Source of the DNA: Terriglobia bacterium
GTDB lineage: Bacteria; Acidobacteriota; Terriglobia; 20CM-2-55-15
Reading direction: 5' to 3'
DNA length: 64,000 nt
Assembly: GCA_965247425.1 (NCBI GenBank)
Contig: OZ252023.1
Span: forward strand, 1,242,917-1,306,916
Made by a program: the position numbers and the translations under genes. A model generated the notes under the pieces. The model was not told the DNA's origin, searched no databases, and worked only from the letters and a program-made list of their open reading frames with translations. Positions 9,774-28,377 of the stretch are shown piece after piece (within the stretch, counting starts at the first letter, position 1; the number at the start of each line of letters is the position of its first letter).

Positions 9774-10042
9774 TGGTCCGCGCCAGATATAGCGGTACTA
9801 GATTTCGGAGTGCAACGGTACCGGATTTGGGGGAGCGACGATGAGCCAATGCTTCGACATTGTGAGGAGGAGCGACGCCAAAGACGGTGCCGTTCCGCCC
9901 GAACCCGTAGGGCCGATGGAGGTTGCCATTCACGAACGCTAAACCGTCGAAAGCTCACACTCACCACACGATGGATCTCACGCATCGGTCCGCTCGCAAC
10001 CTCCTTCGGAGATAGTATCGCTATATCTGGCGCGGACCACTA
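9772..10042. repeat. 271-bp element bounded by perfect 24-bp terminal inverted repeats (tagtggtccgcgccagatatagcg / cgctatatctggcgcggaccacta); MITE-like
   Basis: Inverted repeats at 9772-9795 and 10019-10042 seen directly. The element fills the intergenic gap between the DUF5916 gene stop and the PLP gene. Confidence 0.7.
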
Positions 10043-10058
10043 GAGTAAGCTAGCCGAG

Positions 10059-11183
10059 ATGAAATTCGAGACACGCGCCGTGCACACGGGTCTGACCGTC
10101 GATGAAACCACCGGCGCCATCGCACCCCCGATTCATCTGTCAACGACATTTGGCCGTGATGAGGCGAGTCAGCCGATCGGAGGCCATACCTATATTCGGG
10201 AGTCCAACCCGAATCAGTCACGTCTCGAGCAGACGGTCGCCGATCTGGAGGGCGGGGAGGCCGGTCTTGCCTTCGCGTCCGGAATGGCCGCGGGTGCGGC
10301 GGTCTTCCAAGCGATGGAGCCGGGAACACATATGGTGATGCCCGACGATGTGTACTACGGTTTCGGCATCGCCGCTCGGGAGTTCTGCTCGAAATGGGGG
10401 ATCGCCTCCGACGCCGTACCGATGGACGATCTCGATCGGCTCGCCGCCGCGATTCGTCCCGAGACCGGTTTGATCTGGATCGAGACGCCATCGAATCCAC
10501 TCATGAAGATCGTCGACATCCGCAAGATCGTCGCGCTGGCCCGCAAGGCGGACGCGGTCGCTATTGTCGACAACACCTTTGCCACACCTGCCCTTCAGCG
10601 TCCAATCGAGTGTGGCGCGGACATTGTCCTTCATTCGGCGACCAAGTACTTCGGCGGCCATAGCGATGTGGCCGGCGGTTGCCTGGTGTTCGCCCGCCGG
10701 AGTCCATTGTTCGAGGCGACCGAGCGGGCGCAACACATCCTCGGAGCGTCGCTGTCTCCGTTCAACTCGTGGCTGATCCTTCGCGGCCTGCGGACTCTTG
10801 CATGCCGAATGCGGTCTCAGAGCGCCAATGCGCTCGCGGTGGCCCGCATGCTGGAAGGGCATCCGAATGTCCGTACGGTCCACTATCCGGGCCTCGGATC
10901 CCATCCGGGCCACGAGATCGCGAAGAATCAAATGTCTTCCTTCGGCGCCATGCTGTCGTTCCGGGTCCGGGAGGGAAGGGAAGCCGCCCTGGCTATTGTG
11001 GGGCGTTCGTCTCTTTTTGTTCGCGCGACCTCGCTCGGTGGCGTGGAAAGCCTGATCGAACATCGGGCAACGAGTGAAGGAGCGGATGCGATCAGTCCGG
11101 AGGATCTCATCCGCTTGTCGATCGGACTCGAACACCCCGACGACCTCATTGAAGATCTCGGTCGCGCGTTGTGTCCGGTGTGA
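10059..11183 (+). CDS. PLP-dependent trans-sulfuration enzyme (cystathionine gamma-synthase / beta-lyase / methionine gamma-lyase family)
   Basis: The PLP-lysine motif SATKYFGGHSDV is present, and the sequence matches the Cys/Met-metabolism PLP family throughout. 374 aa. Confidence 0.85.
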   Translation: MKFETRAVHTGLTVDETTGAIAPPIHLSTTFGRDEASQPIGGHTYIRESNPNQSRLEQTVADLEGGEAGLAFASGMAAGAAVFQAMEPGTHMVMPDDVYYGFGIAAREFCSKWGIASDAVPMDDLDRLAAAIRPETGLIWIETPSNPLMKIVDIRKIVALARKADAVAIVDNTFATPALQRPIECGADIVLHSATKYFGGHSDVAGGCLVFARRSPLFEATERAQHILGASLSPFNSWLILRGLRTLACRMRSQSANALAVARMLEGHPNVRTVHYPGLGSHPGHEIAKNQMSSFGAMLSFRVREGREAALAIVGRSSLFVRATSLGGVESLIEHRATSEGADAISPEDLIRLSIGLEHPDDLIEDLGRALCPV

Positions 11184-11455
11184 ATACCCGACTCCCCCTT
11201 CCGGGGTGTTTTCGTGTTACCGTTGCTTAGGGGACAACGACACTTCGTTCCGTTCCCACCACTTTATGACTTCAGCCATTGCCCTCTAAGAAGGAAACAG
11301 TCTCCAGGACGGTCCGGTCTTGCCGGACCCGTGTGTGTGGAGAGTCGTTTCCTTCCCCACTTCTTCTTTCCTGAGCCCGTGTTTGTTGCGCGACGTCAGC
11401 CGCGGACTCACGCGGTCTTACCGAATTCCTTACTTCTGATCGTTTGGTGGGAGAG

Positions 11456-12520
11456 ATGCGGGTGAACCTCGAAGACATAGGCTGGAATTCAGTCTTTAAA
11501 TCTCATTTTGAAAAATTGGAGCGGGCGGAACTCACGCCGGCTCGCGTGGTCCGTCAGGACCGGCATCGCTACCTGATGTTTTCCGAGGCCGGAGAAGTGA
11601 TGGCGGAGGTGTCGGGCCGGATGCGACATGACATCCAGAGAACAACGGAGTTTCCGGTCGTCGGAGACTGGGTGGTGCTTGAATGGACCCCCGAGTGGGT
11701 CCGGATCGAGGCGGTGCTGCCCAGGAAGAGCGCGATCTCCAGGCAGATGGCCGCGGGAGGAGGCAGAGAACAGATTCTGGCGGCGAACCTGGACACGGTA
11801 TTCCTGGTCTCCGGACTCGATGGTGACTACAACCCTCGCCGGATCGAACGATTCGTAAATCTTGGATGGGAGAGTGGAGCGACTCCGGTTCTGATCCTGA
11901 ACAAAGCTGACTTGTCGGTCGATGTCGATGCCGTGGTCCGTCGAGTGGAGGAATTGGCGCCTGGAGTCGCCGTTCATACCCTCAGCGCGAAAGAGCGGAT
12001 CGGTCTCGACGCCTTGGAGACGTACTTGACGCGGGGCCGCACGGCCGCCCTGCTCGGATCATCGGGCGTCGGAAAGTCGACCATCGTCAATTGTCTTCTC
12101 GGAACCGACCGACAGGAGGTGTTTGAGGTTCGCGAAGACGATTCCCGCGGTCGCCACACAACGGTGCGACGGGAATTGTTCGTGCTTCCCTCGGGCGGGG
12201 CGATCATCGACACACCCGGCCTGCGTGAGGTCCGTCTGTGGGGGGAGGAAGAAACTCTCGCGACGACTTTCGCCGACATCGAAAAATTGGGTATCGACTG
12301 CCGGTTCGGGGACTGCCGTCACGACGCGGAACCCGGATGCGGGGTCCTGGCCGCGCTCAAGCGGGGAGACCTGGAGCCCGGCCGGTACGAAAGTTACCGG
12401 AAGATGCAGAAGGAACTGGAGCATGTCGCAAGTCTCGAGGTCCCACACGAAGTCCGTGATCGAGACCGGCGCTTCTCTAAGATGGTGCGGAACGTCATCC
12501 GTGAGAAGAAGAAGGATTAA
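11456..12520 (+). CDS. rsgA: Ribosome small-subunit-dependent GTPase A (RsgA/YjeQ)
   Basis: LILNKADL, GSSGVGKSTIVN, DTPGLREV and a C-terminal zinc finger (CRFGDCRHDAEPGC). The start is uncertain: TTG 11444, ATG 11456 or GTG 11462. Confidence 0.85.
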   Translation: MRVNLEDIGWNSVFKSHFEKLERAELTPARVVRQDRHRYLMFSEAGEVMAEVSGRMRHDIQRTTEFPVVGDWVVLEWTPEWVRIEAVLPRKSAISRQMAAGGGREQILAANLDTVFLVSGLDGDYNPRRIERFVNLGWESGATPVLILNKADLSVDVDAVVRRVEELAPGVAVHTLSAKERIGLDALETYLTRGRTAALLGSSGVGKSTIVNCLLGTDRQEVFEVREDDSRGRHTTVRRELFVLPSGGAIIDTPGLREVRLWGEEETLATTFADIEKLGIDCRFGDCRHDAEPGCGVLAALKRGDLEPGRYESYRKMQKELEHVASLEVPHEVRDRDRRFSKMVRNVIREKKKD

Positions 12521-12526
12521 ATCCCT

Positions 12527-12634
12527 CAACGCAAAGGCGCGAAATCGCAAAGAACGCAAAGTTGTTTATATGGGATCCCGGAGTCCCGAAAAACGAAATG
12601 TGCGACATTTGCGTCTTTGCGTTTTTGCGTTGAA
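12527..12634. repeat. REP/MITE-like palindromic element, family 3, copy 1 (arms caacgcaaaggcgcgaaatcgcaaagaacgcaaag / tttgcgtctttgcgtttttgcgttgaa)
   Basis: Imperfect inverted arms flanking about 45 bp. The element begins 7 nt after the rsgA stop. Related copies lie at 24469, 57547 and 32740. Confidence 0.6.
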
Positions 12635-12653
12635 CTCCCCCGTCGGGGTACGA

Positions 12654-13352
12654 CTAGCTGGTCTCGGCGGCTGGAAGGCTCAGGCGGCGTATGACGACGA
12701 TAGCCACGATGATGGAGATGACGACTCCCGCAACCAGGGGCCAGACCAGCCATGGGAAAGCCACGAAGAGTTCCACCGAGATGTACGACTGGACATAGGC
12801 TATCGGGGCCATCCCAAGCGCCGTGCCCAGCATCACCGCGGACACGGGAATTGTCGTGATGCCGGCGGCGTATGAAACGATGTCGGACGAAGTGAGAGGA
12901 TTGACCCGCAGGAGAGCGATCATGATGAAACCGCGTCGGCGCAGCAGGTCTTCGTACCTGGCCAGGCTTTCGGGGCTGAAAAAATCCCGGGTCCAGTTCC
13001 GGCCGACGAAGGTTCGCATCAGCAGGCAGGCGATGCCGGCGCCGAGCGTGTTTCCCAGTAGCGTCAACGTCCCGCCCCAGAAGCCGCCGAACAGGACGCC
13101 CCCGGGCAGATAGAAGATCGTTCCCGGGATTGGAGCCACGACCACCTCGACAATGACGACCACGAGGTACAAGAGCGGACCCACTGGCCCCCAGCTTCTG
13201 AAGAAGGTCTGAAGCGCCGCCAGCTTGGATTCGGCCTCCATGTCGAAGTCCAGCATCAAGCTGACGATACCGCCGTTCCAGTACGACCAGGCCAACACCG
13301 CAGCGACGAGCGCGAGGCCCGCAACACCTAAAAGTCCAACCTTTCGCTGCAT
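12654..13352 (-). CDS. DedA / TVP38-TMEM64 family membrane protein
   Basis: Multi-transmembrane protein with a glycine-rich re-entrant motif (GTIFYLPGGVLFGGFWG) typical of the DedA/SNARE-associated family. Confidence 0.6.
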   Translation of the reverse strand: MQRKVGLLGVAGLALVAAVLAWSYWNGGIVSLMLDFDMEAESKLAALQTFFRSWGPVGPLLYLVVVIVEVVVAPIPGTIFYLPGGVLFGGFWGGTLTLLGNTLGAGIACLLMRTFVGRNWTRDFFSPESLARYEDLLRRRGFIMIALLRVNPLTSSDIVSYAAGITTIPVSAVMLGTALGMAPIAYVQSYISVELFVAFPWLVWPLVAGVVISIIVAIVVIRRLSLPAAETS

Positions 13353-13429
13353 GGCCCTCCTTCGAAGCTGATCAGGAACGATCTCAGAAAATCACACTGC
13401 GATCTTCCGAGCAAAGCTTTTGAGTCCGA

Positions 13430-14170
13430 TTACGAATAAACGCGTTGTAAACGTCGGCTCGTGTGATCGACGACGACAACTATCGCAAAGATGGCCAGAA
13501 TCAACGTCGCTACACGCTGGTACTGAAACAGGTTGGTCGTCGTGTAGATCATCTGCCCAAGGCCACCCGCTCCGACAACGCCCACGATCGTCGCGCTTCG
13601 TATGTTGGTCTCCCAACGGTACAGCGCAAACGAAATGCATTGGGCCCACGCCTGGGGAACCACCGCGTAGAGCGAGACGGCACTCGGGGATCCGCCCGCC
13701 GATGCGACCGACTCGACAATCCGGGCATCGACGTTTTCGAACGTGTCGCCGAACAGTTTCCCAAGTACACCGGAGGTATGAAATGCGAGGGCAAGAGCCC
13801 CGGCGGCCGGGCCCAATCCGGCCACGAAAACGAAGATCAGGGCCCAGAGCAGATCCGGGACAGCCCGTAGCAGGACAAACAGGCCGCGTGAGAACCAGCC
13901 GAGGCCCCGACGTGCCGTTGACAGCCAGGCGATCGAGAACGAGAACAGAAAGGCGAGTGCCGTGCCCGCGATCGATATCGCCAGGGTCTGCAGGGCGGCC
14001 ACTCCGGTTTGTCTGAGAAATTCCGGATCGACGGCAGGCGGAACGAACTCACCGAGTAGAGCGAGGATGCTGGATCGAGTCCAGCCGGCATCGGGCCAGG
14101 TCAGCCAGAACGATGCGAGGACACCGGCGCCACCGAGCGCGATCAGAGCCGTCCGTTTCGCCAAGTTCAC
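13430..14170 (-). CDS. phnE: Phosphonate ABC transporter permease PhnE
   Basis: PhnE-type conserved region (...SVASAGGSP...LYAVVPQAWAQCISFALYRWETNIRSATIVGVVGAGGLGQ). Confidence 0.8.
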   Translation of the reverse strand: MNLAKRTALIALGGAGVLASFWLTWPDAGWTRSSILALLGEFVPPAVDPEFLRQTGVAALQTLAISIAGTALAFLFSFSIAWLSTARRGLGWFSRGLFVLLRAVPDLLWALIFVFVAGLGPAAGALALAFHTSGVLGKLFGDTFENVDARIVESVASAGGSPSAVSLYAVVPQAWAQCISFALYRWETNIRSATIVGVVGAGGLGQMIYTTTNLFQYQRVATLILAIFAIVVVVDHTSRRLQRVYS

Positions 14171-14973
14171 GAAACCCTCCGAACCAGGGCGCTGATACGA
14201 TCGATTCCGATGACGATCAGAATCAGGGCAAGGATGATCGTGCTGACTTCCGAGTACTCGAACATCCGCATGGAGATGTCAATCTCCTGACCCAGTCCGC
14301 CGGCGCCCACGATGCCGAGCAGTGCCGCCGAACGGACGGCGCATTCCCACCTGTACATGGAATAACCGACCAGGTCGTGCCAGGCCTGGGGCAGGATCGC
14401 GTACACGAACTGTCCGGTCCGGCCCGCACCCACTCCGGCAATGGCCTCGATGGGTGCCCGAGGCGCCGCGTCGAGGAGTTCCCCGTACATCTTGCCCAGG
14501 ATGCCGCCGTAGCTGACACCGATAGCCAGGACTCCGGCGAAAGGGCCAAGCCCGACGATCCGGACGAAAAAGACCGCCCAGACCAGATCGGGAACGCTGC
14601 GGACAAAGGAGAGGAGAAAGCGGGTGGGCGTCGTCACCGTCCGGGTTCCCATCACGCTCGATGCACCGAATGGCCCCAGCAACGTACCGAAAGTGATCGC
14701 CAGAGTTGTTCCCGCAATTCCGATTGCAATCGTCTCTAATGTTGCCCGCGCCACCAGGCGGAGGAAATCCGGAGAAGTGTTGGGCGGGAACAGGCCGCCG
14801 AGAAACTCGGCGGCGGCCGCGATTCCGGCCATCGAGAAGATGACGGAGGGTCGGAGTTCGGAAAGGTACAAAGATGCGGCGATCATAACTGCAAGGACCA
14901 TGGACGTCCGTAACCCGGACGGTTGTTCCCGGGACGAATCGACTTCCAGGTGTAGTTGTTCGTATGTCCGCAT
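14167..14973 (-). CDS. phnE: Phosphonate ABC transporter permease PhnE (second copy)
   Basis: Paralogous PhnE-type sequence (ILPQAWHDLVGYSMYRWECAVRSAALLGIVGAGGLGQ). Its end overlaps the start of the downstream phnE by 4 nt. Confidence 0.8.
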   Translation of the reverse strand: MRTYEQLHLEVDSSREQPSGLRTSMVLAVMIAASLYLSELRPSVIFSMAGIAAAAEFLGGLFPPNTSPDFLRLVARATLETIAIGIAGTTLAITFGTLLGPFGASSVMGTRTVTTPTRFLLSFVRSVPDLVWAVFFVRIVGLGPFAGVLAIGVSYGGILGKMYGELLDAAPRAPIEAIAGVGAGRTGQFVYAILPQAWHDLVGYSMYRWECAVRSAALLGIVGAGGLGQEIDISMRMFEYSEVSTIILALILIVIGIDRISALVRRVS

Positions 14974-15006
14974 GTTCCCTTGTTGCTTTTCACCGGGTGA
15001 AACGAA

Positions 15007-15817
15007 TCAACCCGTTTGATGCGCCGATCTTTCCTTCGCGTACAAGTCGTCGAGCATGGCGTTGGTAACCCGTGATGGCGCGGTGTCGAAGAGTATCTGT
15101 CCATCCCGGAGGCCGATGAGGCGTCCGAAGTTGTGTCGGGCGAACTCGACCTGGTGGAGGTTTACGATCAGCGTCGCTCCTTTTCTCTCGGCCCAGGCGT
15201 TCAACGTGTCGATGGTCATTTGGGACAGGCCCGGATCTAACGACGCGATGGGTTCGTCCGCCAGCATGATCTCCGGGTCCTGGAACATCGCACGGGCGAT
15301 CGCAACCCTTTGCTGCTCCCCGCCGCTGACTTGTTCGGTCCGTTCGTTGAGCTTTTCCTCGATGCGGAACTTCCGGAGGATCATGGAGATCTCGTTTGTG
15401 TCGGGCACCACGAACTTCAAGACGGACCATAGGGGCGAGAGCTGCCCGAGCCTTCCTGCCTGGACGTTTCGGGCGATGCTCAGGCTGGGGACCAGATTGA
15501 AATGCTGGTACACGATCCCGATTCGGGCACGCATCTGTCTGTCTCGCCGGCGGCTGTTCCCCCAGCGGTGTCCATCGATTTCGACCCGGCCGGAATCCGG
15601 ATCGAGGGTTCCGTTGATGAGCCGCAGCAGGGTTGTCTTGCCCGCGCCGCTTGGACCGATCAGGGCGACACGTTCGCCGGTGCGGACCTCCAGGGTCAGG
15701 TCGCGGATAGGAACGAGGGCGCCGAAAGAGCGCGTGACGGTCTGGAGTCGGATATTGATGGGACCTGCCTTTGGACCGAAACCCGTGTTCTTGTAAGCCG
15801 GCTGCTCTGGCTGGCAT
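15007..15817 (-). CDS. phnC: Phosphonate ABC transporter ATP-binding protein PhnC; the N-terminus lacks a canonical in-frame start (probable 1-nt indel)
   Basis: Walker A (VALIGPSGAGKTTLL, nt 15630-15675) and the signature and Walker B motifs (VSGGEQQRVAIARAM, ILADEP) are in one frame back to a stop at 15864, with no ATG, GTG or TTG in that frame upstream of Walker A. An ATG at 15817 lies in the adjacent frame. Confidence 0.65.
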
Positions 15818-16163
15818 CGAACGACCGATCTGACCGGTGGTAGCGAAAATCTCGGAGATGGCTAACGTTTGGGAAACCAGGAACGTCTACCTGACATTAC
15901 GGGCGGGCTCAGGTGAAGCCGGCCGCGGTAGAGGCCCCGTCCTCGGGGTCGATGCTCGAACGCATTGGGCGACTATAGCAAAGGCCTCTGGAAAGACAAG
16001 ACACAATTGCCGGGGGGGCCCTTCCGGCCCTCGAAGGCCGGGGCGGGCGGTCCCGGCCGGTTGTCCCACCGAATGAACGGTTTGGAGCAGCGGAACGGCA
16101 TACAACTTTTTACAACATGCCCGGGAGATACTCGGGATCGGTGAGAGGTATATTCTGAAAACC

Positions 16164-17780
16164 ATGTCGTCGAGAACCAAGTTGATCGCGCTAGCCGTTG
16201 TCGCCGTCATGTTGCCGACAATGATTCTCTCGGTGATTCAGTATCGCTCGTTGCTCCAGCTTCAGAGCACGACGAAGCTGGCGGCTCAGGAGAGTCTGAG
16301 ACAAGTGTTGTACGGCCTGTCGGGCCGGGCCGAAGAAGAGTTGACCTGGATCGCCGAGCAAGCCCTCGGAACCCTCGACACCGAGTCTCTGTCCAGGGAA
16401 AACATTCTGGAACTCGAGAGGCACTTCGAGGCGGTTCGGACGGCGAATCCGGCAATCGACAGGCTCTTCCTTTCCTTCGTGTGTGGCTGCGAGAGTTTCG
16501 GTGTGGTCACCTCCGCGAACGGAAGCCGAAGGTTCGAGAACGAGAGAGCGGCCAGGAGGCTCGAAGTGGTCCAGGTTCAGGACCTGTTCGAAAGTGCCCG
16601 CACGGACGCCTATCCGGACGGACGGGTGGGCAGAGACTTTCTGTTCGCACACCTGTCCGATTGCAGAGGGCCATCCTGCCGTCAGGGCGACGATTTTGAA
16701 ACATATGTGTTCTACCCTTTGATCAATCAGGGTGGGGAAGAACTGGGCTTCGCGGCCATGTCGCTGAAAACGAAATACATCACCGATGAGCTGTTCGCCC
16801 GCGTTCTACCGGCAAAGCTTGATCGCGACCTGGCCATCGGGATCTTCGATGAGAACCATTCCGAACTCTATGCCACCCAGAAGGCACGTCAGACGTGGGA
16901 AGTCACCGTGCCCCTGGCACCCGTGTTTCCCCGGTGGAGCCTGGGAGCAGGCTTCAGGAACACGACGATCGAGGGCGCGGCGCAGCAGCAGTTCCAGGAG
17001 AGCCTGGCCCTGTCCTTGTTCGTTCTGTCATTGCTGGTTCTGGGCATTATCCTGACGCTCCGTGCGACAGCTCGAGAGATCCGGCTTGCCGAAGCCAAGT
17101 CCACTTTTGTGTCGAATGTCTCCCACGAACTGAAAACTCCCCTGGCCCTGATCCGGCTGTTTGCAGAGACGCTTGAACTGGGGCGCGTGCGGTCGTCGGA
17201 CAAGGCGCATGAATACTATCGAATCATCAGCAACGAAAGCAGACGACTGACGCAGTTGATCAACAATATCCTGGACTTTTCACGAATCGAAGCCGGTCGC
17301 AAAGAGTATCAGTTTGAAACGACCGATGTCGCCCAGGTCGTGCGGGAAGTCGTCGAGACGTATCAGTATCCCCTTGAAAACGCCGGTTTCAAAATAGTCA
17401 CCGTAATTGAATCCGACCTCCCGCCCGTCAAGATCGACCGGGATGCGATGTCGCAAGCCGTCCTCAACCTGGTGAACAATGCCGTCAAGTACTCCGCTGA
17501 GATCAAACGGATCGACATCCGCGTACGTTCAGCCGAGGGCCACATCGCCGTTGAGGTGGCCGACCAGGGCATCGGCATTCAAACCTCCGAACAGGAGAAG
17601 ATTTTCGAAAAATTTTACCGGATCAGTACCGGTCTGGTGCATGACCGGAAGGGGAGCGGTCTGGGCCTGGCCCTGGTCGACCATATCGTCAAGGCCCATC
17701 GTGGCGAGATTGTCGTAGAGAGCAAGCTGGGCAAGGGGAGCCGTTTTACCGTCCTGATTCCGCTGGCCGCTGACGGCTAA
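16164..17780 (+). CDS. Sensor histidine kinase (two transmembrane helices, a periplasmic sensor domain, HisKA and HATPase_c)
   Basis: H-box SNVSHELKTPLA. N, G1 and G2 boxes (NAVKYS, DQGIGI, GSGLGLALV). Confidence 0.85.
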   Translation: MSSRTKLIALAVVAVMLPTMILSVIQYRSLLQLQSTTKLAAQESLRQVLYGLSGRAEEELTWIAEQALGTLDTESLSRENILELERHFEAVRTANPAIDRLFLSFVCGCESFGVVTSANGSRRFENERAARRLEVVQVQDLFESARTDAYPDGRVGRDFLFAHLSDCRGPSCRQGDDFETYVFYPLINQGGEELGFAAMSLKTKYITDELFARVLPAKLDRDLAIGIFDENHSELYATQKARQTWEVTVPLAPVFPRWSLGAGFRNTTIEGAAQQQFQESLALSLFVLSLLVLGIILTLRATAREIRLAEAKSTFVSNVSHELKTPLALIRLFAETLELGRVRSSDKAHEYYRIISNESRRLTQLINNILDFSRIEAGRKEYQFETTDVAQVVREVVETYQYPLENAGFKIVTVIESDLPPVKIDRDAMSQAVLNLVNNAVKYSAEIKRIDIRVRSAEGHIAVEVADQGIGIQTSEQEKIFEKFYRISTGLVHDRKGSGLGLALVDHIVKAHRGEIVVESKLGKGSRFTVLIPLAADG

Positions 17781-18051
17781 GCAGCCTGTGGCGGGACTCT
17801 TGAGGGTCGCGCGCAGGGGGATTCGGGTTTCAGGCGCGAAGAGAGGAGCGGAGCGATGCTTTGTCATCGTGACCGACGAACGACAAAGCCTGAGACCCGA
17901 AGACCCCTGCGCCCGACGGGTTACGACGGCATCGGGTCATCTGCGGCGTTGCCACTCATCATCGATGGGTAGCATCGACGTCGTCGTGGCGCCGGATATC
18001 TGGCCCGATGACGCTCGTAACGCGACCCTCGAGAGTTCCGCCACAGGCTGC
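17781..18051. repeat. MITE-like element family 1, copy A (271 bp, roughly 31-bp terminal inverted repeats gcagcc(t/c)gtgg...gggtcgcg)
   Basis: Starts immediately after the histidine-kinase stop codon and ends 25 nt before the response-regulator start. About 85% identical to the copies at 49206-49520 and 51740-52011. Confidence 0.8.
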
Positions 18052-18075
18052 TAATAAATGGAGGAAGAGAAGCCA

Positions 18076-18756
18076 ATGCAGAAAGTTCTTGTTGTCGAAG
18101 ACGAGCCCGACATGATCCTGGGATTGAAGGACAACCTGGAGTACGAGGGATACGACGTGGACATTGCGAGCGACGGAGAGGCAGGTATCGAGCGGGCGAG
18201 TTCGGGCCGGCCGGACCTGATTCTGCTCGACGTGATGCTTCCCAAAATGAGTGGGCTGGATGTGTGCCGGAGCCTTCGAACCCAGGGTGCGGACATGCCG
18301 ATCATCATGTTGACCGCTCGCAGCCAGGAGGTGGATACCGTCGTGGGTCTGGAAGTGGGTGCGGACGACTATGTCACGAAGCCATTCAGTATCAAGGAAT
18401 TGCTGGCGCGCGTTCGAGCTCATTTGCGCCGTCGGTCGAATCAGGTGATCGAGGTCGACAACTACTCGTTCGGCGACGTCCGGCTGTTCTTCAAGAAGCA
18501 TCAAGCGTCGAAAGCGGGCGTGCCGATCGATCTGTCTCCACGCGAATTCGACATGATGAAGTACTTCATCCAGCGCAAGGGAGAAGCCATCACCCGTGAT
18601 GAGCTGTTGAACGACGTCTGGGGCTACACAAATTTTCCGCTGACACGTACCGTGGACAATCATGTTGCGAAGCTGCGCCAGAAGATCGAAGACGTTCCAT
18701 CGGAGCCGAAGCATGTGATCACCGTCCATCGGGTGGGTTACAAGTTCGTCGAATAA
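18076..18756 (+). CDS. OmpR/PhoB-family winged-helix response regulator
   Basis: Receiver domain (VLVVEDEPD...LILLDVMLP...) and a C-terminal trans_reg_C domain (VDNHVAKLRQKIE...ITVHRVGYKF). ATG 18076 is preceded by a ggagg SD. Confidence 0.85.
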   Translation: MQKVLVVEDEPDMILGLKDNLEYEGYDVDIASDGEAGIERASSGRPDLILLDVMLPKMSGLDVCRSLRTQGADMPIIMLTARSQEVDTVVGLEVGADDYVTKPFSIKELLARVRAHLRRRSNQVIEVDNYSFGDVRLFFKKHQASKAGVPIDLSPREFDMMKYFIQRKGEAITRDELLNDVWGYTNFPLTRTVDNHVAKLRQKIEDVPSEPKHVITVHRVGYKFVE

Positions 18757-18771
18757 ACCGAGGTGAACACC

Positions 18772-19410
18772 ATGTCCAACTTGAACCGCACCCTTGTTGC
18801 GACGATGTTGCTGGTCGGTCTATCACTTGTTGTCATCGGGCAGAGTGCGAGAGATCGGAACCGCGACCGCTGGCAGCGTCCTGACGAGGTCATGGACGAG
18901 TTGGGTCTCGAATCGGGCAGTGCTGTTGCCGACATCGGTGCCGGTCGCGGCTATTTTACTTACAAGTTTGCGGAGCGGGTCGGCCCGGCGGGCCGGGTGT
19001 ACGCCGTCGACATTCAGCAGGAACGGCTCGATCAGATCCGTCGTGGGTTGTCCCAACGGGGTTTTCGGAACGTGGAACTGATTCACGGCGAGCCGGACGA
19101 CCCCGGTCTGGCTCCAGACTCCGTGGAAGCCATTTTGATCGTCAACGCTTATCACGAGATGCGCGATTTTGATGAGATGCTGCAGGCGATGCACCAGGCC
19201 CTGAAACCCGGAGGCGTGCTCGGGATCATTGACGCGGAGGCGACCGAAGGACGACAACGCAGCCGATATCAGCGCGATCACGAGATTCCCGAATCACTCA
19301 TCAAGGAAGATGCCGCACGGAACGGCTTCGACTTTCTACGGAAAGGTAAAGGCTTCGTTTCAAGCGGTGACGACTGGTATTTTCTGATCTTCGAGGCACT
19401 CTCCCCTTGA
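18772..19410 (+). CDS. Class I SAM-dependent methyltransferase with an N-terminal signal or anchor sequence
   Basis: Motif I VADIGAGRGYFT. ATG 18772 with SD aggtg. Hydrophobic N-terminus LVATMLLVGLSLVVIG. Confidence 0.7.
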   Translation: MSNLNRTLVATMLLVGLSLVVIGQSARDRNRDRWQRPDEVMDELGLESGSAVADIGAGRGYFTYKFAERVGPAGRVYAVDIQQERLDQIRRGLSQRGFRNVELIHGEPDDPGLAPDSVEAILIVNAYHEMRDFDEMLQAMHQALKPGGVLGIIDAEATEGRQRSRYQRDHEIPESLIKEDAARNGFDFLRKGKGFVSSGDDWYFLIFEALSP

Positions 19411-19602
19411 CCGGTTTCGCTCCGCCAATCCCACAAATGAACACGAGCATCCGCTCGCTGGTCGCCCCCTGAACTCATAAGGCCCAACACAGCAATAATT
19501 TACGTCCTGTTGGGAATTGGTCCGAGACTTGCGCCTCTAAGCTAGGAGTCAGCGCTGCAGACAAGTATGACTTCCTGGCCATCCAAAAGGGGACTGAAGA
19601 AC

Positions 19603-22020
19603 ATGATCGATTTGCTCCAGGACATCCGATACAGCCTTCGCGTACTCGCCGCCAGGCCCGGTTTCACCCTGGTCGCGGTCCTGACTCTCGCACTGGGAAT
19701 AGGCGCGAACACTGCGATTTTCAGCGTGATCAACACGGTCCTGCTTCAACCGTTGCCCTTCTCCGAGCCCGACCGCTTGACCCTCATGTGGACCATGACC
19801 GAGGAAGATCCGGAGTCGGCGGTATCCTGGCTGGACTTCGTTGATTGGAAAGATCAGAGCGAGGCGTACGAGGCCATGGCGGTGTACCGCCGCGAGAATC
19901 CACCCTGACAGGTGTCGGAGTCGCCGAAAGGCTGCTCGGAGCCAAGGTGTCGGCTGGCTTCTTCGGGCTCCTTGGCCAGTCGATCGAGCTCGGGCGACCC
20001 TTCACGGCCGGAGAAGACGAGGATGGTGCCGAGAGGGTCACGGTGATCAGCCACAGTGTCTGGCAGACCCGTTTCGGCGGAGCCGCCGACGTCATTGGCC
20101 GTTCGATCGGGCTGAACGGGGAGCCGACTACAGTGGTGGGCGTCTTGCCGGTGGGCTTTCGTTTCCCCGCGGACCTGGGTGACACGGAGATCTGGACGAC
20201 AATGGCCGGGGATTCGTTCAAAACGGAACGTGGAACCCGGACCCTCCGAGCCGTGGGCCGATTGAAGGCCGACGTCTCGATCGAACAGGCTCAGGCCGAG
20301 ATGGATGAGATTGCGGGGCGACTGGAGGAGGTTTACGAAGGAAAGGTCGGACGGGGCATTTATGTTGTGGGTTTGCATGACCAGTTGGTGAGCGACTCCC
20401 GGCCCGCGTTGTTGATCCTGTTTGCGGCCGTGGGAGCCGTCCTTCTGATCGCATGCGCCAACCTGGCCAACTTGCTTCTGGCGAGAGGCGCGGACCGGCA
20501 ACGCGAATTCTCGGTTCGGGCGGCACTTGGCGCGGGTCGCTGGAGAATTGCCCGCCAGTTGCTCACCGAGAGTACGGCGATCGGCCTGATGGGAGGAGGG
20601 TTGGCTCTCCTGTTCGCACTCTGGGGCCTGGACGGGCTACAGGCCATGATTCCCGAGGAACTCGTCGCGGTTGGGAACCTCCAACTCGATCGAACCGTCC
20701 TGGGTTTCGCTCTTGGCCTGTCCCTGGCGACGGGACTGATCTTTGGTTTGTTGCCTGCGCTGGCCGCTGCGAATCCCGATCTGATTCAAGGACTGAAGGA
20801 AGGAATTCGCGGGACGGATGGACGCTCCCGTACTCGTTTGCGCAGTGTCCTGGTGGTTGCCGAAGTCAGCATGGCGGCTGTCCTTCTGGTCGGCGCGGGC
20901 TTGCTCCTGCGTAGCTTCTGGGTTCTGACATCGGTGGAACCCGGCTTTGATCCGAACAATGCGCTGACCTTCCAGATGTCCATGCCCTTTGCCCTCGACA
21001 CCATCAATGACGAGCGAGCGGGCTTTTACGACGAGGTTTTGGCCACCATCGGGGAGATTTCAGGCGTGGAGTCGGCCGCGGCCATCACGATCCTTCCAAT
21101 GGAAGGCGGCGAAATCGGCGCCGGTCTGGAAATCGTCGGCCGGCCGGTTCCGGCCGGTGATCGTCCATCGGTCCGATACAATTCGGTCACACCCGGCTAC
21201 TTCGGAACGATGCGAATACCTCTGGTACGGGTACGTGACTTCGAAGGGAGCGACTCCCGCGGCCGACCCGGTGTCGCGGTGATCAACCGTGCCCTGGCCG
21301 ATCGATTCTGGCCCGACGGGGATCCGATTGGTGAGACTCTGGATCCGGCGATTTCCTTCGACCTCGAGGGCGAACCGGAAGTATTCGAAGTGGTGGGCAT
21401 CGTCGAGAACGTCCACGAAAGGGACCTGGCTTCGGAAGCTCGGCCGCAGATGTATTTTTCATACCGGCAGCACACCTTCCCGTTCATGAGCTTTGTCGTT
21501 CGGACCCAGACGGACGCGGCGTCGTTGATCGGTCCAATCCGGGACGCCGTGGGAACGGTGGACATGGACCAACCGATTTTCGACATCCGGACGATGGACG
21601 AATACCTGGCCCGGACGATGACTTCGCGCCGCTATCCGATGATCCTGCTTGGCATGTTCGCAGGCCTCGCGCTGCTGCTGGCGCTGGTCGGTATTTACGG
21701 GGTGATCTCTTACTCGGTCGGGCAGAAGACGCATGAGATCGGGATTCGCATGGCGTTGGGTGCGGCCCGGCGCGACATCCTGACGCTGGTTCTCGCCGAA
21801 GGCCTGCGCCTGGCGCTTGCAGGAGTCGGCATCGGCGTCGTTTTGGCGCTGGGACTCACCCGGTTCCTGTCCAGCCTGCTGTTTGGCGTCGGCGCAACGG
21901 ATCCGGTGGCGTTCACCGGCGTGCCGGTCATCCTGGCGGTCGTGGCTCTGATCGCGTGTCTGGTCCCGGCGATTCGGGCCGTTGGCGTCGAGCCGATGGT
22001 TTCTCTCAGAAACGAAATAG
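19603..22020 (+). CDS. ADOP-family (acidobacterial duplicated orphan permease, MacB/FtsX-like) permease, unit A; frameshifted near the 5' end
   Basis: N-terminal [41 protein letters not shown]. Frame shifts at about nt 19890 (..YRRENPP* then ..[12 protein letters not shown]); restoring one C in a cc run gives ENPTLTG. The C-terminus ...PMVSLRNE is typical; an extra A at about 22019 removes the natural TAG. Confidence 0.75.
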
Positions 22021-22041
22021 GGATCAATCAAGGAGCAGCCG

Positions 22042-24443
22042 GTGGGTTTCATACAGGACATCGATACGGTCTCCGCGTTCTGGCTGCCCGTCAGGCTTTT
22101 ACGCTGGTGGTGGCGCTGACGCTCGGTCTTGGCATCGGGGCCAACACCGCGATCTTCAGTCTGGTCAATGGGCTCTGGCTGCAACCGCTCGAGTATGAAG
22201 ATCCGGACGAATTGGTTCACCTGTGGAAGATTCGCACCGAAGGCGGCCTGGAAAGTACGACTCGATTTTCCGAGCGTGACTTCTATGAATGGCGTAGCCG
22301 GAACCAGTCGTTCGAAGACCTCGGCGTCTACGATTTCACGAGCGTGAACCTGACCGGCCTGGACGAACCCGAGAGGATCCGGGCCGCGCGGGTCTCAGTC
22401 GGTTTCCTTCGCGCACTGGGCGTCAGGCCGGCCATCGGCCGGCTGTTTCTTCAGGAAGAGGAAATGCCCACCTCAAATCGAGTCGTGATCTTGTCTGACG
22501 CGTTCTGGCAGAGTCGATTCGGATCGGACGAGAGCGTTCTAGGCCAGGAAATTACTTTAAGTCAAGCCCCTCACACCGTAATCGGTGTTCTATCGGCCAA
22601 TTTCGACTTCGCCGGTCAGGATGTGGGCCTCTGGCTTCCGATCCTGATGGATCCAGCAGCCCTCGGAGTCGGCCAGCGTTTGCGTGCCGTTGGACGGCTC
22701 AAGGACGGCGTGTCGATCCAGGAGGCCGAGGCCGACATGCAAACGCTCGCCGGCCCTATTGCGGAGCTGTTCCCTGAGACGAATACCGACTGGACCATCA
22801 TGCTCGTGCCGCTCTACGACGAGATCGTGCGCGAGGCTCGGGCCCCGTCGTTGATGCTGCTCGGGGCTGTCGGTTTCGTCTTGTTGATCGCCTGCGTGAA
22901 CGTCGCCAACCTGATGCTGGCGCGGGGGGCGACCCGGCGGCAGGAGATCGCGGTCCGTGCCGCTCTGGGCGCAGGACGTGGACGGCTGATCCGACAGGTG
23001 TTGACCGAGAGCAGCCTGATCGGCCTGCTCGGTGGCGCCGTGGGTTTCATCTGGGCCTTGTGGGCCGTCGACTTCATGGTCGCCGCTCTCCCGGCCGGGA
23101 CACCGAGACTCGACGAAGTCCGAATTGATTTCACGGTCTTCATGTTCACTCTTGGACTGTCTCTGGCGACGAGCCTCTTCTTTGGCATGGTACCGGCGCT
23201 GCAGTCTTCGCGAACAGGGCTGACTGATTCTCTCAAGAACGGGCAGTCGCGGATGGTGAGCCCGGACAAGCATCGCTTCCTGCGCGTTCTGATCGTGGCC
23301 GAGGTTGCCCTGGCCCTGGTCCTGCTCGTCGGCGCCGGCTTGATGACTCGCAGCCTGATTACCCTACTCCGGGTCGATCCCGGATTCGACGTCGAGAATA
23401 CGATGGCCATGGAGATCTCCCTGCCGCAAGCCTCCTATCCCGATGGGGCGTCCTGGAGACAGTTCTTTGGGCAATTGCAGGAACGAGTCGAGAATATTGC
23501 GGGGGTGTCATCGGCAGGCCTGGTCCAGTTTATTCCCCTTGGGTCGAGCTGGAGCACTGCGTCCTTTGTCATCGAAGGACGTCCCGCGCCTGTAATGAAC
23601 GACAGGCCTTCGGCGATCATCAACAGAGTCAGCTCTGGATACTTCGACACGTTGCAGGTCCCGCTTCTTCGCGGCCGACTCTTCGACGCGCGCGACAACG
23701 AGGACGCCGAGGCCGTGATGATCATCAGCAACAACCTCGCCCAGCGTTTCTGGCCTGATCAGGACCCCATCGGAGAAAGGATCGAATTTGGGGGCACGGG
23801 AATGCCGATGACGGTGATTGGCGTTGTGGGCGACGTGCATGCCCGGGGAATCGACAGAGATTCGCCGATGGTCACTTATGATCATTTGCGTCAGTTGCCT
23901 TTTCCCAGGATTGTTCTTACCGCTCGCTCGAACATGGACTCTGCCGGGCTGGCTTCGGTCATGCGTCGCGAAGTCCTGGCACTCGATCCGGATCAATCTG
24001 TCTTCAACGTTCGGACGATGGGAGACCTGCGCGAGCAAGACTTGATGGGCGCGCGACTGATCGTCAACCTGGTTGCGGGCTTTGCCGTGCTGGCGCTGGT
24101 TCTGGCCGTGGTCGGCTTCTATGGCGTCCTGTCTTATATCAACGCCCAACGTTTCCGCGAAGTCGGTGTCCGCGTGGCCCTTGGAGCGCACCGTCGCGAC
24201 ATACTCCGGTTGCTGATCGGCGAGGGACTGCGGTTGACGTCGATCGGCGTCGGTATCGGGTTGGTCGGTGCTTTCGGCCTCGGCCGACTTCTGGTCAGCC
24301 TGCTGTTTGGAGTCAGTCCGACCGACCTGGTCACCTTCATTGGCCTTCCGATTCTGATGATCACCGTCGCATTCCTGGCCAGCTACCTCGCGGCCCGCCG
24401 AGCCACACGATTGGACCCCATGGTCGTCCTCCGAGCCGACTGA
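22042..24443 (+). CDS. ADOP-family permease, unit B (tandem paralog); apparent in-frame fusion to unit A is probably an artefact
   Basis: SD AAGGAG then GTG 22042 reads VGFIQDI(R)YGLRVLAARQAFTLVVALTL only if one C is restored in atc(c)gatac at about 22068. As given, the frame continues from unit A, giving the 1532-aa ORF in the track. C-terminus ...DPMVVLRAD*. Confidence 0.7.
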
Positions 24444-24468
24444 TTGGCGATTCCAGGTAGGGAGTCGT

Positions 24469-24638
24469 CAACGCAAGGACGCAAAGAACGCGAAGTGTGA
24501 TTCTCCTACCTTGCTACGTGGCCTGCGTTTTCGCCGCATTGAAACGACAACCTGCGCATGGCAGGAAGGCACAGGCCAATCGGACATCTCCAAAGACAAA
24601 AGACTCTGGCCCTCTGCGTCTTTGCGCCTTTGCGTTGA
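24469..24638. repeat. REP/MITE-like palindromic element, family 3, copy 2
   Basis: Arms caacgcaaggacgcaaagaacgcgaag ... ctctgcgtctttgcgcctttgcgttgaa flank about 115 bp. The element begins 26 nt after the unit-B stop. Confidence 0.6.
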
Positions 24639-24654
24639 AAAAAATGTGTCAGTT

Positions 24655-25722
24655 TCTCTGTCCTTCACCTTCAGGGCGTCCCTATCCGGTGACCGGAAAC
24701 GCTACCTGGAACCCAGCGGTTATTCGCCCGAGCAGGGCCGTGGGTTCTATCGAAGGTTGCTCGATCAGGTGCGAGCACTTCCCGGAGTCGTCTCGGCAAC
24801 CTACTCCCGGCGGCCCCCACTGTCTATGAGAGGCGGCAGCATCCTCGGCATCAGCGAGATCGAGGGCTACCGGTTCGGACCGGACGAGCGAATGGTGTCC
24901 CTGTATGACGCGGTCGGTCCGGCATACTTCGAAACAATGGAGATCCCGTTACTTTACGGGCGCGACTTCCATACCGGAGATCGAGACGGCAACAGCGAGA
25001 TCGTCATAGTCAATCAGATGTTCGCCGAGCGTTTCTGGCCGGGGGAGAATCCGGTGGGCAGACGGATTGTGGCCAACGGAGCGCCGCTCGATATCGTCGG
25101 CGTCGCCGGGAACGTCAAGCATCGAACGATCGGTGAGGACAGCGCCTTCTTTCTTTACGGAACGCTGCAGCAGGTGTACCGGCCCGACACGACGCTGATC
25201 GTACGGACGACAGGCGATCCGACCCTGCTGACGGCCGCGTCGCGAGCCGAGATCCGGAACCTGGACGCGAACCTCCCGGTGTTCGGAATCGTCACGATGG
25301 AGGAGCACGTCGGCCTGTCGATGCTGCCTCAGCGCATGGCTGCAGCGGGGGCGGGTGTGTTCGGCCTGCTGGCGCTTGGACTGGCCGCTCTGGGCGTCTA
25401 TGGTGTCGTCTCGTACGCGGTCGGTCTCCGCATGCGGGAGATCGGGTTGCGAGTGGCTCTCGGAGCAAAGAATGCCGATGTCTTCAGCCTGATTCTCAGG
25501 ATGGGGCTGATACCGACGATGATTGGAACGCTCCTTGGTGGGATCGCCGCCTTTGGAGTCACGCGGTTTATGGAAGGCCTGCTCTTCGGCGTATCCCCCA
25601 CGGACCCGGTGACGTTCGTCGTCATCGGCACGCTCCTGCCGGTGGTGGCAGCGGCGGCGTCGTTCGTTCCCGCGCTGCGGGCGATGAGGGTGGACCCTCA
25701 AATCACGCTACGGCACGAATGA
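24655..25722 (+). pseudogene. 5'-truncated ADOP permease (C-terminal half only: second periplasmic domain plus FtsX transmembrane bundle)
   Basis: Homology to ADOP starts right after the family-3 repeat (...GFYRRLLDQVRALPGV...). The N-terminal transmembrane helix and first half are missing. C-terminus ...DPQITLRHE* is canonical. Confidence 0.65.
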
Positions 25723-25844
25723 AACAACTCCTGGCGAACCATGGAGCGTGTCTCTTCCTCACGGATTGACCGACAAAGGGGATTCGGACTACCATCCGCT
25801 TTCCGATATTCCCCGGAGTTGGACTTCCGAAAGGGACACGCGTC

Positions 25845-26255: not shown

Positions 26256-26361
26256 TGCCGAGCAGGCTCCTAGCCCGAAGTTCCGGAACGCCAGGGACGT
26301 AAGTATCCGCAGCGATTTGGGTTTCGCGGAATCAGAGTGTGCGGGACTGGGAACAGCCCGA

Positions 26362-26703
26362 TCAAAGAGCCAGCTTAACGCCCAGTAGGTCCAGGGCCCG
26401 CTGCTGTAGGGATGTAGGTCGGGTGGTCTTCTGGAACGAGGGCGCGTCGATCGTTGTGTGAGTGCAGGTGTTGCGAACGATCGATCCGAGGTCGGCGAGT
26501 AGTGTTCGGAAGCTGTGAACGGGCTGGCCGTCGTGGGTCCGCTTGGCGCGGCTTTGGCGCGGGCCATGGAGGCGACTGCGGCTGATTTCGAAGGCGTCTC
26601 CCGGGTTGGTGCCCGCGGGAGCGCCCTGGAGCACGGCCCGGAGCGCATCGATCTTTCCCTGAGGCCAATCACTCAGATTAGCGAGCGTCCGTTTGCGACA
26701 CAC
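26362..26703 (-). CDS. Hypothetical protein (113 aa), possibly a mobile-element remnant
   Basis: ORF in a lower-GC patch next to the TA pair. No family was recognised. Confidence 0.25.
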   Translation of the reverse strand: MCRKRTLANLSDWPQGKIDALRAVLQGAPAGTNPGDAFEISRSRLHGPRQSRAKRTHDGQPVHSFRTLLADLGSIVRNTCTHTTIDAPSFQKTTRPTSLQQRALDLLGVKLAL

Positions 26704-27112
26704 GCTGCCGGATGCTCGCTCGTTTTTGATGGATAGGGAGACGTTGGGCGCTTACAGCTTACTCTGGGGCCAGGAACCTCAGGAAAAGCGGTATACCGGC
26801 GAGCCCTCCCGGCTTAGTCCGGATGAATATGCTCTCTTCGACGACCTGCGCCATAACCGGATTGGCGAGCGGGTACGCCTAGAGCAGGAACGGATAAGCT
26901 ATGGCTATCTCGAACGAGTATTGCGGAACATCTTTCGTCAGACAGGATCCACATGACCCACCTCATCGACGACACCAACGTATGGCTTGTTCGGATGCAA
27001 AGTCCCGACGGTAGGGTCCACGCTTTTTCGGCATCTGCCATATAATGGATTGGTGCTGGCTCCGCTTGACGGGCGCTGCACCGATGCTAACCTAAGTCCA
27101 AGGAGGTGCTCC

Positions 27113-27355
27113 TTGAAAAACTACGCTTTTAATGTCGTCGTGGAGGATGACGAGTACGAGGATGGGCGCCCCGCGTTTCGGGCGTACTGTCCCGCGCTTG
27201 AATCCATCGGGGCTTCAACGTCGGGTGACACTCGCGAAGAAGCAGTGAAGAACATCCAAGAAGTTCTCCGGATGATCGTGGACGAACTCGCCGAAGAAGG
27301 GAAAGAGATCCCGCCAGACGCCCTCTCATCTGATGCCGTAGTGGTGAGCGTTTGA
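27113..27355 (+). CDS. hicB: HicB-family antitoxin (type II toxin-antitoxin)
   Basis: SD aaggagg then TTG 27113. 80 aa with a UPF0150/HicB-like sequence (NYAFNVVVEDDEYEDGRPAFRAYCPAL...EEAVKNIQEVL). Confidence 0.65.
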   Translation: MKNYAFNVVVEDDEYEDGRPAFRAYCPALESIGASTSGDTREEAVKNIQEVLRMIVDELAEEGKEIPPDALSSDAVVVSV

Positions 27356-27582
27356 AACGGGGCATTACCGCCCGCCTCCTTATCAAAGCTCTCAAGAAAG
27401 ACGGATTCACTCACGTCCGAACGGACGGGAGCCACCGCAGGTTCCGACATTCAGACGGCCGGAGAGTAACCGTTTCCTACCACAAAGTATCCTCTACTTT
27501 CACGATCAAGACGCTACGCAGTATTGTCTTCAAGCAAGTCCGATGGAACGATGACGACTTACGACGACACAATTTCTTGTGA
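27352..27582 (+). CDS. hicA: HicA-family mRNA interferase toxin
   Basis: TTG start overlapping the hicB stop (TTGA). LIKALKKDGFTHVRTDGSHRRFRHSDGRRVTV matches the HicA/YcfA signature. Confidence 0.7.
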   Translation: MKRGITARLLIKALKKDGFTHVRTDGSHRRFRHSDGRRVTVSYHKVSSTFTIKTLRSIVFKQVRWNDDDLRRHNFL

Positions 27583-27627
27583 CCGGCTGTCAGGCGTTTC
27601 TGCTCTACGGCAATCATGACGCGAAAG

Positions 27628-28377
27628 TCAGATCACACGTCGTCTGAGCCTTCCGACTAGCCCTAGAATGACCTCCAGCGTTTCGATGGTTGGCAGGAAC
27701 GACCGTAACTCGGAGACTGCGTTTCCGACGGGCGCTTCTCTGCCGTTTGGGTTGTACCAGACGGGACGGATGCCCGCACCCATCGCGCCCACGACGTCGA
27801 CCTCCCAGGAATCCCCGACCATCACTGCCTGTTCCGGTGAAGCACCCGCCATTCGAAGGGCCTGGTCGAACATCTCCGGTGCCGGTTTCGGGTGTTCGGT
27901 TTCCTCGGACGTCACCATGAAGTCGATCAACGGGTCGAGTTTGCAGTGGGCGAGTTTGGAGCGCTGCTCGATGACGAAATTGTTCGTCACGATGCCTATG
28001 GGGACCCGGGTCCCCAGACATTCGAGAAGTTCGATAGACCCGGCCATGGCGCGCCTTGAGGCGCGATAGACCTCGCGGTACCGTCCGGCCGCAGCCTCCA
28101 CCTCACCTGGAGCGAGTGACGCCCCACACCATTCGGCCAACAGGCGGAATCGTTCAATGCGACCCTCAGCCTGGGTCAAGAGGCCGGCCAGCACCTTCCG
28201 GTGAGTGCGGTTCAAGATTTCAAAAGCCGCACTTTCAAGTTCGTCGACTCCCCGCGCCCGGAAGGCGTGGTATTCGTTCCGGAGAGTGACGAGTCCGCAA
28301 CGACTGGCATGCCGGTGGTCGAAGAGCGTGTCATCCAGATCGAAGAGCACCAGGCGCGTTTCATTCATTCCCTGCAT
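27628..28377 (-). CDS. HAD-superfamily hydrolase (subfamily IA)
   Basis: Motif I LVLFDLDDTLFDH, motif III GIVTNN, motif IV MVGDSWEVDVVGAMGAG. The start was chosen at an internal Met at nt 28377; the track ORF extends to 28458. Confidence 0.75.
   Translation of the reverse strand: MQGMNETRLVLFDLDDTLFDHRHASRCGLVTLRNEYHAFRARGVDELESAAFEILNRTHRKVLAGLLTQAEGRIERFRLLAEWCGASLAPGEVEAAAGRYREVYRASRRAMAGSIELLECLGTRVPIGIVTNNFVIEQRSKLAHCKLDPLIDFMVTSEETEHPKPAPEMFDQALRMAGASPEQAVMVGDSWEVDVVGAMGAGIRPVWYNPNGREAPVGNAVSELRSFLPTIETLEVILGLVGRLRRRVI

Follow-up and report, generated by a model that had tools for sequence, protein, structure and literature searches.

Two tandem ADOP permease genes read as a single protein in a Terriglobia bacterium: ordinary gene decay or local assembly error

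The analysis of a 64,000-nucleotide stretch from a Terriglobia bacterium (assembly GCA_965247425.1, contig OZ252023.1, positions 1,242,917 to 1,306,916 of the forward strand; hereafter the window, numbered from its first letter) showed that an apparent fused permease of 1532 amino acids is made up of two tandem genes, units A and B, of the ADOP family (TIGR03434, 'Acidobacterial duplicated orphan permease'), joined by single-base indels. This had been proposed in a preliminary description made from the sequence alone, and it is borne out by a related assembly, L013, in which the two genes are separate and encode 805 and 800 amino acids. The ancestral state is one of two genes, three coding indels are private to the window, and the surrounding ADOP array is variable and decaying. 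The favoured explanation, to which we give a probability of about 0.6, is that the indels are real and recent mutations and that the pair is being pseudogenised within a dispensable array, the fused open reading frame (ORF) being a by-product; accordingly, we infer that they are present in the DNA of the organism and not just in the consensus. The fused permease is ordinary gene decay or a local assembly error and not a new protein, combining a known family with ordinary lesions.

The locus and its reading frames

The ORF listing and its translation place the fused ORF at 19845-24443 on the + strand, with 1532 amino acids from TTG 19845. The public record starts it at GTG 19947 instead, as the 1498-aa protein P0182, which is identical to translated 19947-24443. 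It is preceded by an N-terminal stub ORF of unit A (19603-19908, + strand; 101 aa from ATG 19603, with TGA at 19906-19908), which comprises the cytoplasmic N-terminus, the first transmembrane helix (TM1) and the beginning of the periplasmic domain, and matches TIGR03434 positions 1-97. A frameshift at 19900 leaves the fused ORF, as it is sequenced, without TM1 of unit A. The NCBIfam search assigned the fused ORF to TIGR03434 at 1725 bits; the match falls into two stretches, of which the second extends over profile positions 6-803 of 803. Pfam detected four MacB_PCD and four FtsX stretches.

Unit A (19603-22019, + strand) is an ADOP duplicated permease of ancestrally 805 codons that bears a 1-nt deletion and has lost its TAG stop. 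Unit B (22042-24443, + strand), also an ADOP duplicated permease, ancestrally comprises 800 codons, from GTG 22042-44 to TGA 24441-43, and its own frame is broken at codon 7/8. The three-frame translation of the locus contains two frame switches. The first lies near 19900, after ...AMAVYRRE(N), and the codon-usage frame profile likewise switches at ~19900. At the second, ...VSLRNE reads through the junction, where the +1 frame gives *GSIKEQPVGFIQDI. The junction letters quoted in the preliminary description are present: AAA at 22015-17, a Shine-Dalgarno site of unit B (AAGGAG, 22030-22035, + strand) placed 6 nt 5' of the GTG and kept as (A)AGGAG in the relatives L013 and L019, GTG at 22042-44, and ACATCGATAC at 22058-67. 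According to the three-frame translation and the alignment to L013 and L019, the fused ORF crosses this region through an out-of-frame linker of 15 codons (22017-22061, + strand), which runs from the former stop through the spacer and its Shine-Dalgarno site to the sixth or seventh codon of unit B.

Separate genes in a relative and three private indels

Eight related assemblies (L013-L019 and L026) served as comparators. The relatives were found through cluster members at least 90% identical to neighbouring genes, beginning with the orthologue of the response regulator (L013), and they include contigs with metaMDBG-style names and coverage tags; L019 is a MEGAHIT short-read contig. When JGI metagenomes were scanned with a pattern from the 3' end of unit A, L026 was the sole match; it is 99.96% identical to L019 and does not carry the alleles of the window. 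A homology search with the fused protein gave no match above 51% identity and missed the close relatives, and a contig scan with unit B as query retrieved only paralogues, at 43% identity or less.

The most informative relative is L013, which is 98.5% identical to window 9892-24444 (14.5 kb) with the same gene order. Its two ADOP genes are separate and intact, each with the PCD-FtsX-PCD-FtsX arrangement, and their 805 and 800 aa equal the lengths of the repaired window units, even though L013 is only a 3x contig. The assemblies L014-L018 are ~95.7% identical to the window. The 805-aa orthologue of unit A is intact in L013, L014, L015, L016, L017 and L018, and the comparison with tandem ADOP pairs in related genomes, which the preliminary description had called for, thus returned a separate and intact pair in L013.

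Pairwise and multiple alignments with the eight related assemblies identified three coding 1-nt indels that are private to the window. The first is the loss of an A at 19900/19901 (+ strand), where the window has GAATC-CACCC and 6 of 6 relatives have GAATCACACCC; the relatives read GAG AAT CAC ACC CTG (ENHTL) at this position, with AATCACACC present in all of them. The second is the gain of an A in the AAA run at 22015-22017 (+ strand), with ACGAAATAGG in the window and ACGAATAGG in 7 of 7 relatives. The extra A changes GAA TAG to GAA ATA G, by which the stop of unit A is lost; the relatives all close the gene with ...SLRNE-TAG (GAATAG). The third is the loss of a T or C at 22061/22062 (+ strand), where ACAT-CGATAC in the window corresponds to ACATTCGATAC in L013 and to ACATCCGATAC in L019 and L026, the affected codons being ATT CGA and ATC CGA, respectively. 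The k-mers CGAGAATCCACCCTG, AACGAAATAGGGA and GGACATCGATACGG carry the window alleles. A further private change, an extra C (CC in the window and a single C in 5 of 5 relatives) at 19579-19580 on the + strand, is non-coding and lies 24 nt 5' of the unit A ATG. The 2-nt difference in spacer length at ~22030 is a deletion private to L013 and not a change of the window. The +1/-1 pair at the junction restores the frame only because, at the spacer length of this lineage, the stop of unit A (TAG) is in frame with the start of unit B (GTG).

The two junction indels are located where they had been placed from the sequence alone, and the predicted ...SLRNE*, Shine-Dalgarno site and GTG-GGT-TTC-ATA-CAG-GAC-ATY-CGA-TAC are all seen in the relatives, so that the predicted reconstruction with stop, Shine-Dalgarno site, GTG and MGFIQDIRYGLRVLAAR is correct at the protein level. 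Some details required revision. A C had been restored at the junction, and L019 and L026 do carry the predicted ATCCGATAC, but the missing base may be a T, as in L013. The further frameshift described in unit A at about 19890 exists but sits at 19900/19901, about 10 bases away, and the read-through protein with its N-terminus restored would have 1613 aa, not ~1630.

When repaired, unit A scores 952.7 bits and unit B 924.9 bits against TIGR03434 (cutoff 622.3), both over positions 1-803 of 803. Given these end-to-end scores, the two-unit match is beyond chance. In addition, the MGFIQDIRYGL N-terminus of unit B is called independently in the public proteins P0179 and P0180 (M/VGFIQDIRYGL).

An accessory ADOP array in decay

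The ADOP segment of the window (19396-25725) is an accessory insertion or deletion, flanked by genes for a methyltransferase and a 4HBT thioesterase. The relatives L020, L021 and L022 lack it, and its gene content varies among the carriers (L013, L014-L018 and L019). Five to six tandem ADOP genes are found in L014, L015 and L018. The relatives contain a downstream array of genes of 822, 805, 816 and 806 aa, which has been lost from the window except for half a gene. This remnant (24704-25722, + strand) is 5'-truncated and retains the C-terminal half, matching TIGR03434 positions 463-803 only; in alignments it corresponds to the 3' half of the 806-aa gene found in L014, L015 and L018. The 260-nt spacer before it (24444-24703) contains imperfect inverted repeats, CAACGCAAGGACGCAAAGAACGCGAAG ... 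CTCTGCGTCTTTGCGCCTTTGCGTTG, and its central 82 nt are missing in L019 and L026.

Unit B has been deleted through two different pairs of breakpoints, corresponding to window 22038-23937 in L014-L018 and to 22073-24042 in L019 and L026. The deletion in L019 is internal and in frame, leaving a 145-aa ORF in which the start and the last FtsX helices are retained. Unit A of L019 (8734-11149) is damaged as well, by two private 1-nt deletions, 54 nt apart and equivalent to window 20717 and 20771, which split it into 378 and 382 aa. Elsewhere in the array, the third ADOP gene of L013 is cut to 548 aa and adjoins a DDE_3 transposase gene, and one ADOP gene is split by a 1-nt indel in each of L014 and L015.

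A fourth ADOP gene of the window (42772-45237, + strand) carries a private 13-nt deletion after 45177, between CGCT direct repeats. The deletion shifts the last ~20 codons, the canonical ...ARRASRIDPMAILRGE* being readable in another frame, and the TIGR03434 match ends at 776 of 803. In the relatives L023, L024 and L025 the C-terminus of this gene is intact, although 12 codons are missing at another place. The 13-nt deletion is unlikely to be a consensus error.

Judged by its sequence, the pair would qualify as recent pseudogenes, given disabling lesions relative to intact orthologues in genes that are dispensable in relatives. The proposed course of events starts from an ancestor with two co-oriented MacB-type ADOP genes. 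A 22-nt spacer carrying a Shine-Dalgarno site lay between the TAG of the first and the GTG start of the second, and within each gene the set of TM1, periplasmic core domain and FtsX helices is internally duplicated. The loss of an A at 19900/19901 would have truncated unit A after ~100 codons and cut off its TM1. The gain of an A in 22015-17 would have abolished the stop (TAG) of unit A. A T or C lost at 22061/62 would have broken the frame of unit B and, combined with the preceding gain, brought the body of unit B into frame with unit A. The outcome would be the 101-aa stub and the 1532-aa ORF with its linker of 15 out-of-frame residues, reported as one protein by gene callers. By analogy with the topology of MacB, the fused product is most likely non-functional, as the N-terminal truncation would remove the TM1 signal-anchor.

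Real mutations or consensus errors

The main alternative is that the organism has intact and separate units, as L013 does, and that the three coding indels, perhaps together with the extra C at 19579, are artefacts of assembly or polishing. Errors would then be concentrated in this segment because, being accessory and strain-variable, it was supported by fewer or mixed reads. We regard this explanation as possible but doubtful. The preliminary description had attributed the indels to sequencing errors; this attribution is unsupported and unproven, and on the evidence of their distribution it is the less likely of the two.

The distribution was obtained by polarising the indels between the window and L013 with outgroups over 9892-24444. 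The indels private to the window comprise four in 1.5 kb of non-coding sequence (13350, 16009, 16118 and 19579, that at 16118 being a 6-nt deletion), three in the 4.8 kb of coding sequence of the ADOP pair and none in the 8.2 kb of other coding sequence. Under a uniform model, the probability that none of the seven falls in other coding sequence is 0.003. The private indels are distributed as selection would leave them. Their density in non-coding sequence, 2.6 per kb, predicts ~12 in a fully neutral pair compared with the 3 observed; the three indels are thus quantitatively unremarkable and need only a recent neutral phase. Relative to L013, unit B also shows relaxed constraint: its differences divide into 13 synonymous and 20 non-synonymous, whereas the ratios in neighbouring genes are 16:3, 17:5 and 12:4. 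Polarising the substitutions of unit B through the C-terminal remnants in the relatives left too few sites.

An error process acting at a uniform rate fits these data poorly. Near-identical sister assemblies with the same naming style are 1-2 indels per 17-20 kb apart, and for nanoMDBG a mock community is reported to have given about 4 indels per 100 kb (PMC13087279). At these rates, the probability of at least three errors in 4.8 kb is 0.001-0.005, a rejection that applies to a uniform error rate and does not argue against a local error process. The other coding sequences of the 64-kb window, ~43 kb in total, contain no frameshift and are full length relative to Pfam or the relatives, the probability of all three coding indels falling in the ADOP pair being ~0.001, and no isolated frameshifting indel was found in other genes when compared with relatives covering 12.6-59.5 kb. 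Sister assemblies have units A and B intact, even L013 at 3x. The homopolymers concerned span just 1-3 nt, and the lesion at 19900 lies outside any such run. Similar lesions occur in the same gene of the short-read assembly L019, and the 13-nt deletion affects another ADOP gene on the same contig. A chimeric consensus of strains was considered and rejected, as unit A of the window is uniformly L013-like, with no mosaic of haplotypes.

Several observations weigh in the opposite direction, against real mutations and in favour of local error. The source is a single 6.41-Mb contig (6,411,617 bp), which almost certainly implies a long-read assembly, and the relatives carry metaMDBG-style names with coverage tags; 1-nt indels are the typical residual error of such assemblies, in which frameshifts are a recognised type (PMC13087279). 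All four private 1-nt indels of 19579-22062 fall within the accessory segment 19396-25725, a strain-variable region in which coverage or consensus quality could be locally poor, and three of the four are length changes of short homopolymers. The site at 22061/62 is polymorphic for T and C among the relatives, and the two alleles are identical after homopolymer compression. The private substitutions of unit A number 7 synonymous and 3 non-synonymous, a ratio that implies purifying selection on this gene until very recently, so that real lesions would all have to be young; units A and B contain no nonsense mutations or larger lesions. The +1 and -1 indels lie 46 nt apart, which has a ~3% chance under independent neutral events. 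Finally, no second assembly with the alleles of the window was found, either among the cluster members or in the scan of JGI metagenomes.

The lesions also resemble a recognised class of error. The frameshift-split or fused genes of long-read metagenome assemblies (the IDEEL error class) likewise arise from single-base indels that change ORF length (PMC13087279). Unlike in that class, the indels of the window are confined to one accessory pair, with ~43 kb of other coding sequence clean, and unit A is also frameshifted in the short-read assembly L019.

Fusion and recoding

A second alternative takes the fused ORF at face value. The knock-out of unit B at codon 7/8 would have been rescued by the stop-destroying extra A, giving a selected single-chain A-B permease with 16 TM helices and both termini in the cytoplasm, that is, two complete MacB-type pseudo-dimers caught just after their origin; the lesion at 19900 would be a later inactivation or a sequencing error. 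We consider this very improbable. The +1/-1 pair, 46 nt apart, does bracket the stop and start exactly (the same ~3% by chance), and double-length ADOP ORFs do occur in databases. MacB-type permeases have cytoplasmic N- and C-termini, as established by MacB structures, and by analogy a fusion would be topologically permissible. However, none of the eight relatives is fused, the genes being separate in L013 and unit A ending at TAG in the others. As sequenced, the ORF has no TM1 of unit A, its linker is an out-of-frame reading of the spacer that replaces part of the conserved QDIRY motif, and unit B is dispensable in relatives. Neither a conserved architecture nor an in-frame linker, as expected of a bona fide fusion, was found.

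The double-length ADOPs of the databases do not help this reading, being singletons with junk read-through junctions. The public proteins P0001 (1629 aa), P0003 (1763 aa), P0004 (1618 aa) and P0013 (1788 aa) each hold two ADOP units within one ORF, with coverage of the fused query reaching 100%; their identity to the window protein is only 35-42%, and their origin is unrelated. Their junctions consist of low-complexity, Arg/Gly/Pro-rich out-of-frame sequence leading into the next ...QDxRY... start. Each forms a singleton cluster on one contig, with no conserved fusion family, and they are likely frameshift artefacts or pseudogenes.

Programmed recoding, in which ribosomal frameshifting or transcriptional slippage would bypass the 19900 site and the junction in a regulated manner, is scarcely credible: its sole support is that the downstream frames stay open for 1532 codons, whereas the relatives encode the same proteins in one frame with no shift at either site, CGC GAG AAT CCA CCC TGA (19891-19908) offers no X XXY YYZ heptamer or homopolymer run, and a +1 shift at CCC-TGA would give the wrong frame, the ADOP frame being -1; with unconserved shift sites and no slippery site, programmed frameshifting is excluded.

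Family identity and relation to MacB

The repaired units belong to TIGR03434, both exceeding its 622.3-bit cutoff end to end. They share with other ADOP proteins the duplicated MacB_PCD + FtsX modules, two per protein, and the occurrence in multi-copy tandem arrays; this paralogous family is often arranged in tandem, and the window holds four ADOP genes or remnants. In contrast to typical ADOP copies, the two units of the window are frameshifted and read as one ORF.

The nearest solved relatives by sequence are the MacB structures 5GKO, 5LIL and 5NIK (E 6.5e-18 to 9e-14). MacB, a type VII ATP-binding cassette (ABC) transporter, shares with ADOP the FtsX-type four-helix TM unit, in which TM1 and TM2 are separated by a periplasmic core domain. 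Unlike MacB, the ADOP units have no fused N-terminal ATPase, and the permease unit is duplicated within one chain, whereas MacB is a homodimer. The MacB model NF007826 is matched only over positions ~357-645 of 648, with 84-103 bits against a cutoff of 966. By analogy, ADOP proteins presumably share the mechanotransmission mode of MacB.

No ATPase genes flank the pair. The nearest one (15007-15801, - strand, ABC_tran) lies ~4 kb upstream, grouped with two BPD_transp_1 permease genes on the strand opposite to the ADOP pair. Although its ABC_tran domain is complete and contains Walker A, no ATG, GTG or TTG occurs in the first ~90-100 codons of this ABC ATPase. In the window as in all relatives, gene callers recover just 175 aa of its C-terminal part, which suggests that the gene uses a non-canonical start codon.

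Other features of the window

Other overlapping ORF pairs (1294/1632, 6382/6635, 11444/12123, 45501/45770 and 62437/62907) were considered as hidden frameshifts and rejected, being shadow ORFs or truncated remnants according to Pfam and the relatives. Most of the seemingly frameshifting BLAST gaps outside the ADOP genes were likewise discarded, as they either pair a +1 with a -1 gap 2-4 nt away, an alignment artefact of clustered substitutions, or lie at gene ends. The private 1-nt deletion at 13350 affects a VTT-domain gene, in which ...CCATTGCAG... of the relatives becomes ...CCATGCAG... on the coding strand; it turns the start TTG to ATG and leaves the protein length unchanged.

Downstream of the ADOP segment, 26258-27661 is an insertion specific to the window and absent from all relatives. 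It contains a C-terminal fragment of JetD (Wadjet; 26693-26956, positions 103-178 of 179), a weak HicB-like ORF (26987-27355) and a HicA toxin gene (27352-27582). The region 6338-7335 is a mosaic of partial duplicates of nearby genes that is not found at this position in relatives. Its pieces derive from a Cys/Met-metabolism gene (3' part, ~83% identity with relatives), from RsgA (residues 74-218, sharing 74% of amino acids with the intact copy at 11444-12520) and from a DUF5916 gene (3' end, ~91%).

Between the fourth ADOP gene and glgC, a segment of ~165 nt (45608-45772) recurs with 87-98% identity at unrelated positions in relatives. It adjoins a transposase in L013 (18168-18351) and lies between the ABC ATPase and a response-regulator remnant in L015 (9070-9234), L016 and L018, and may represent a small repeat or mobile element. 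The edges of the window (41-2106, 59916-61997 and 62437-62925) are occupied by mobile elements and remnants, among them an IS21-like pair (a Mu-transposase-like gene and IstB), a 693-aa ORF in which tyrosine-recombinase and IS91/Y2-transposase domains are combined, and a truncated Ser/Thr kinase with only the first ~73 positions of the kinase domain.

Significance

The comparison with close relatives separates the question of where the indels are from that of whether they are real. The chief value of the result concerns annotation quality: the public 1498-aa P0182 and the other double-length ADOPs should not be mistaken for a new transporter architecture, and the other double-length ADOP "proteins" of the databases look like indel read-throughs of tandem genes. 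The locus also provides a small, clear example of an accessory ADOP tandem array lost piecemeal within a species complex, with losses that range from absence of the whole array to internal deletions, truncation by insertion sequences and single-base frameshifts.

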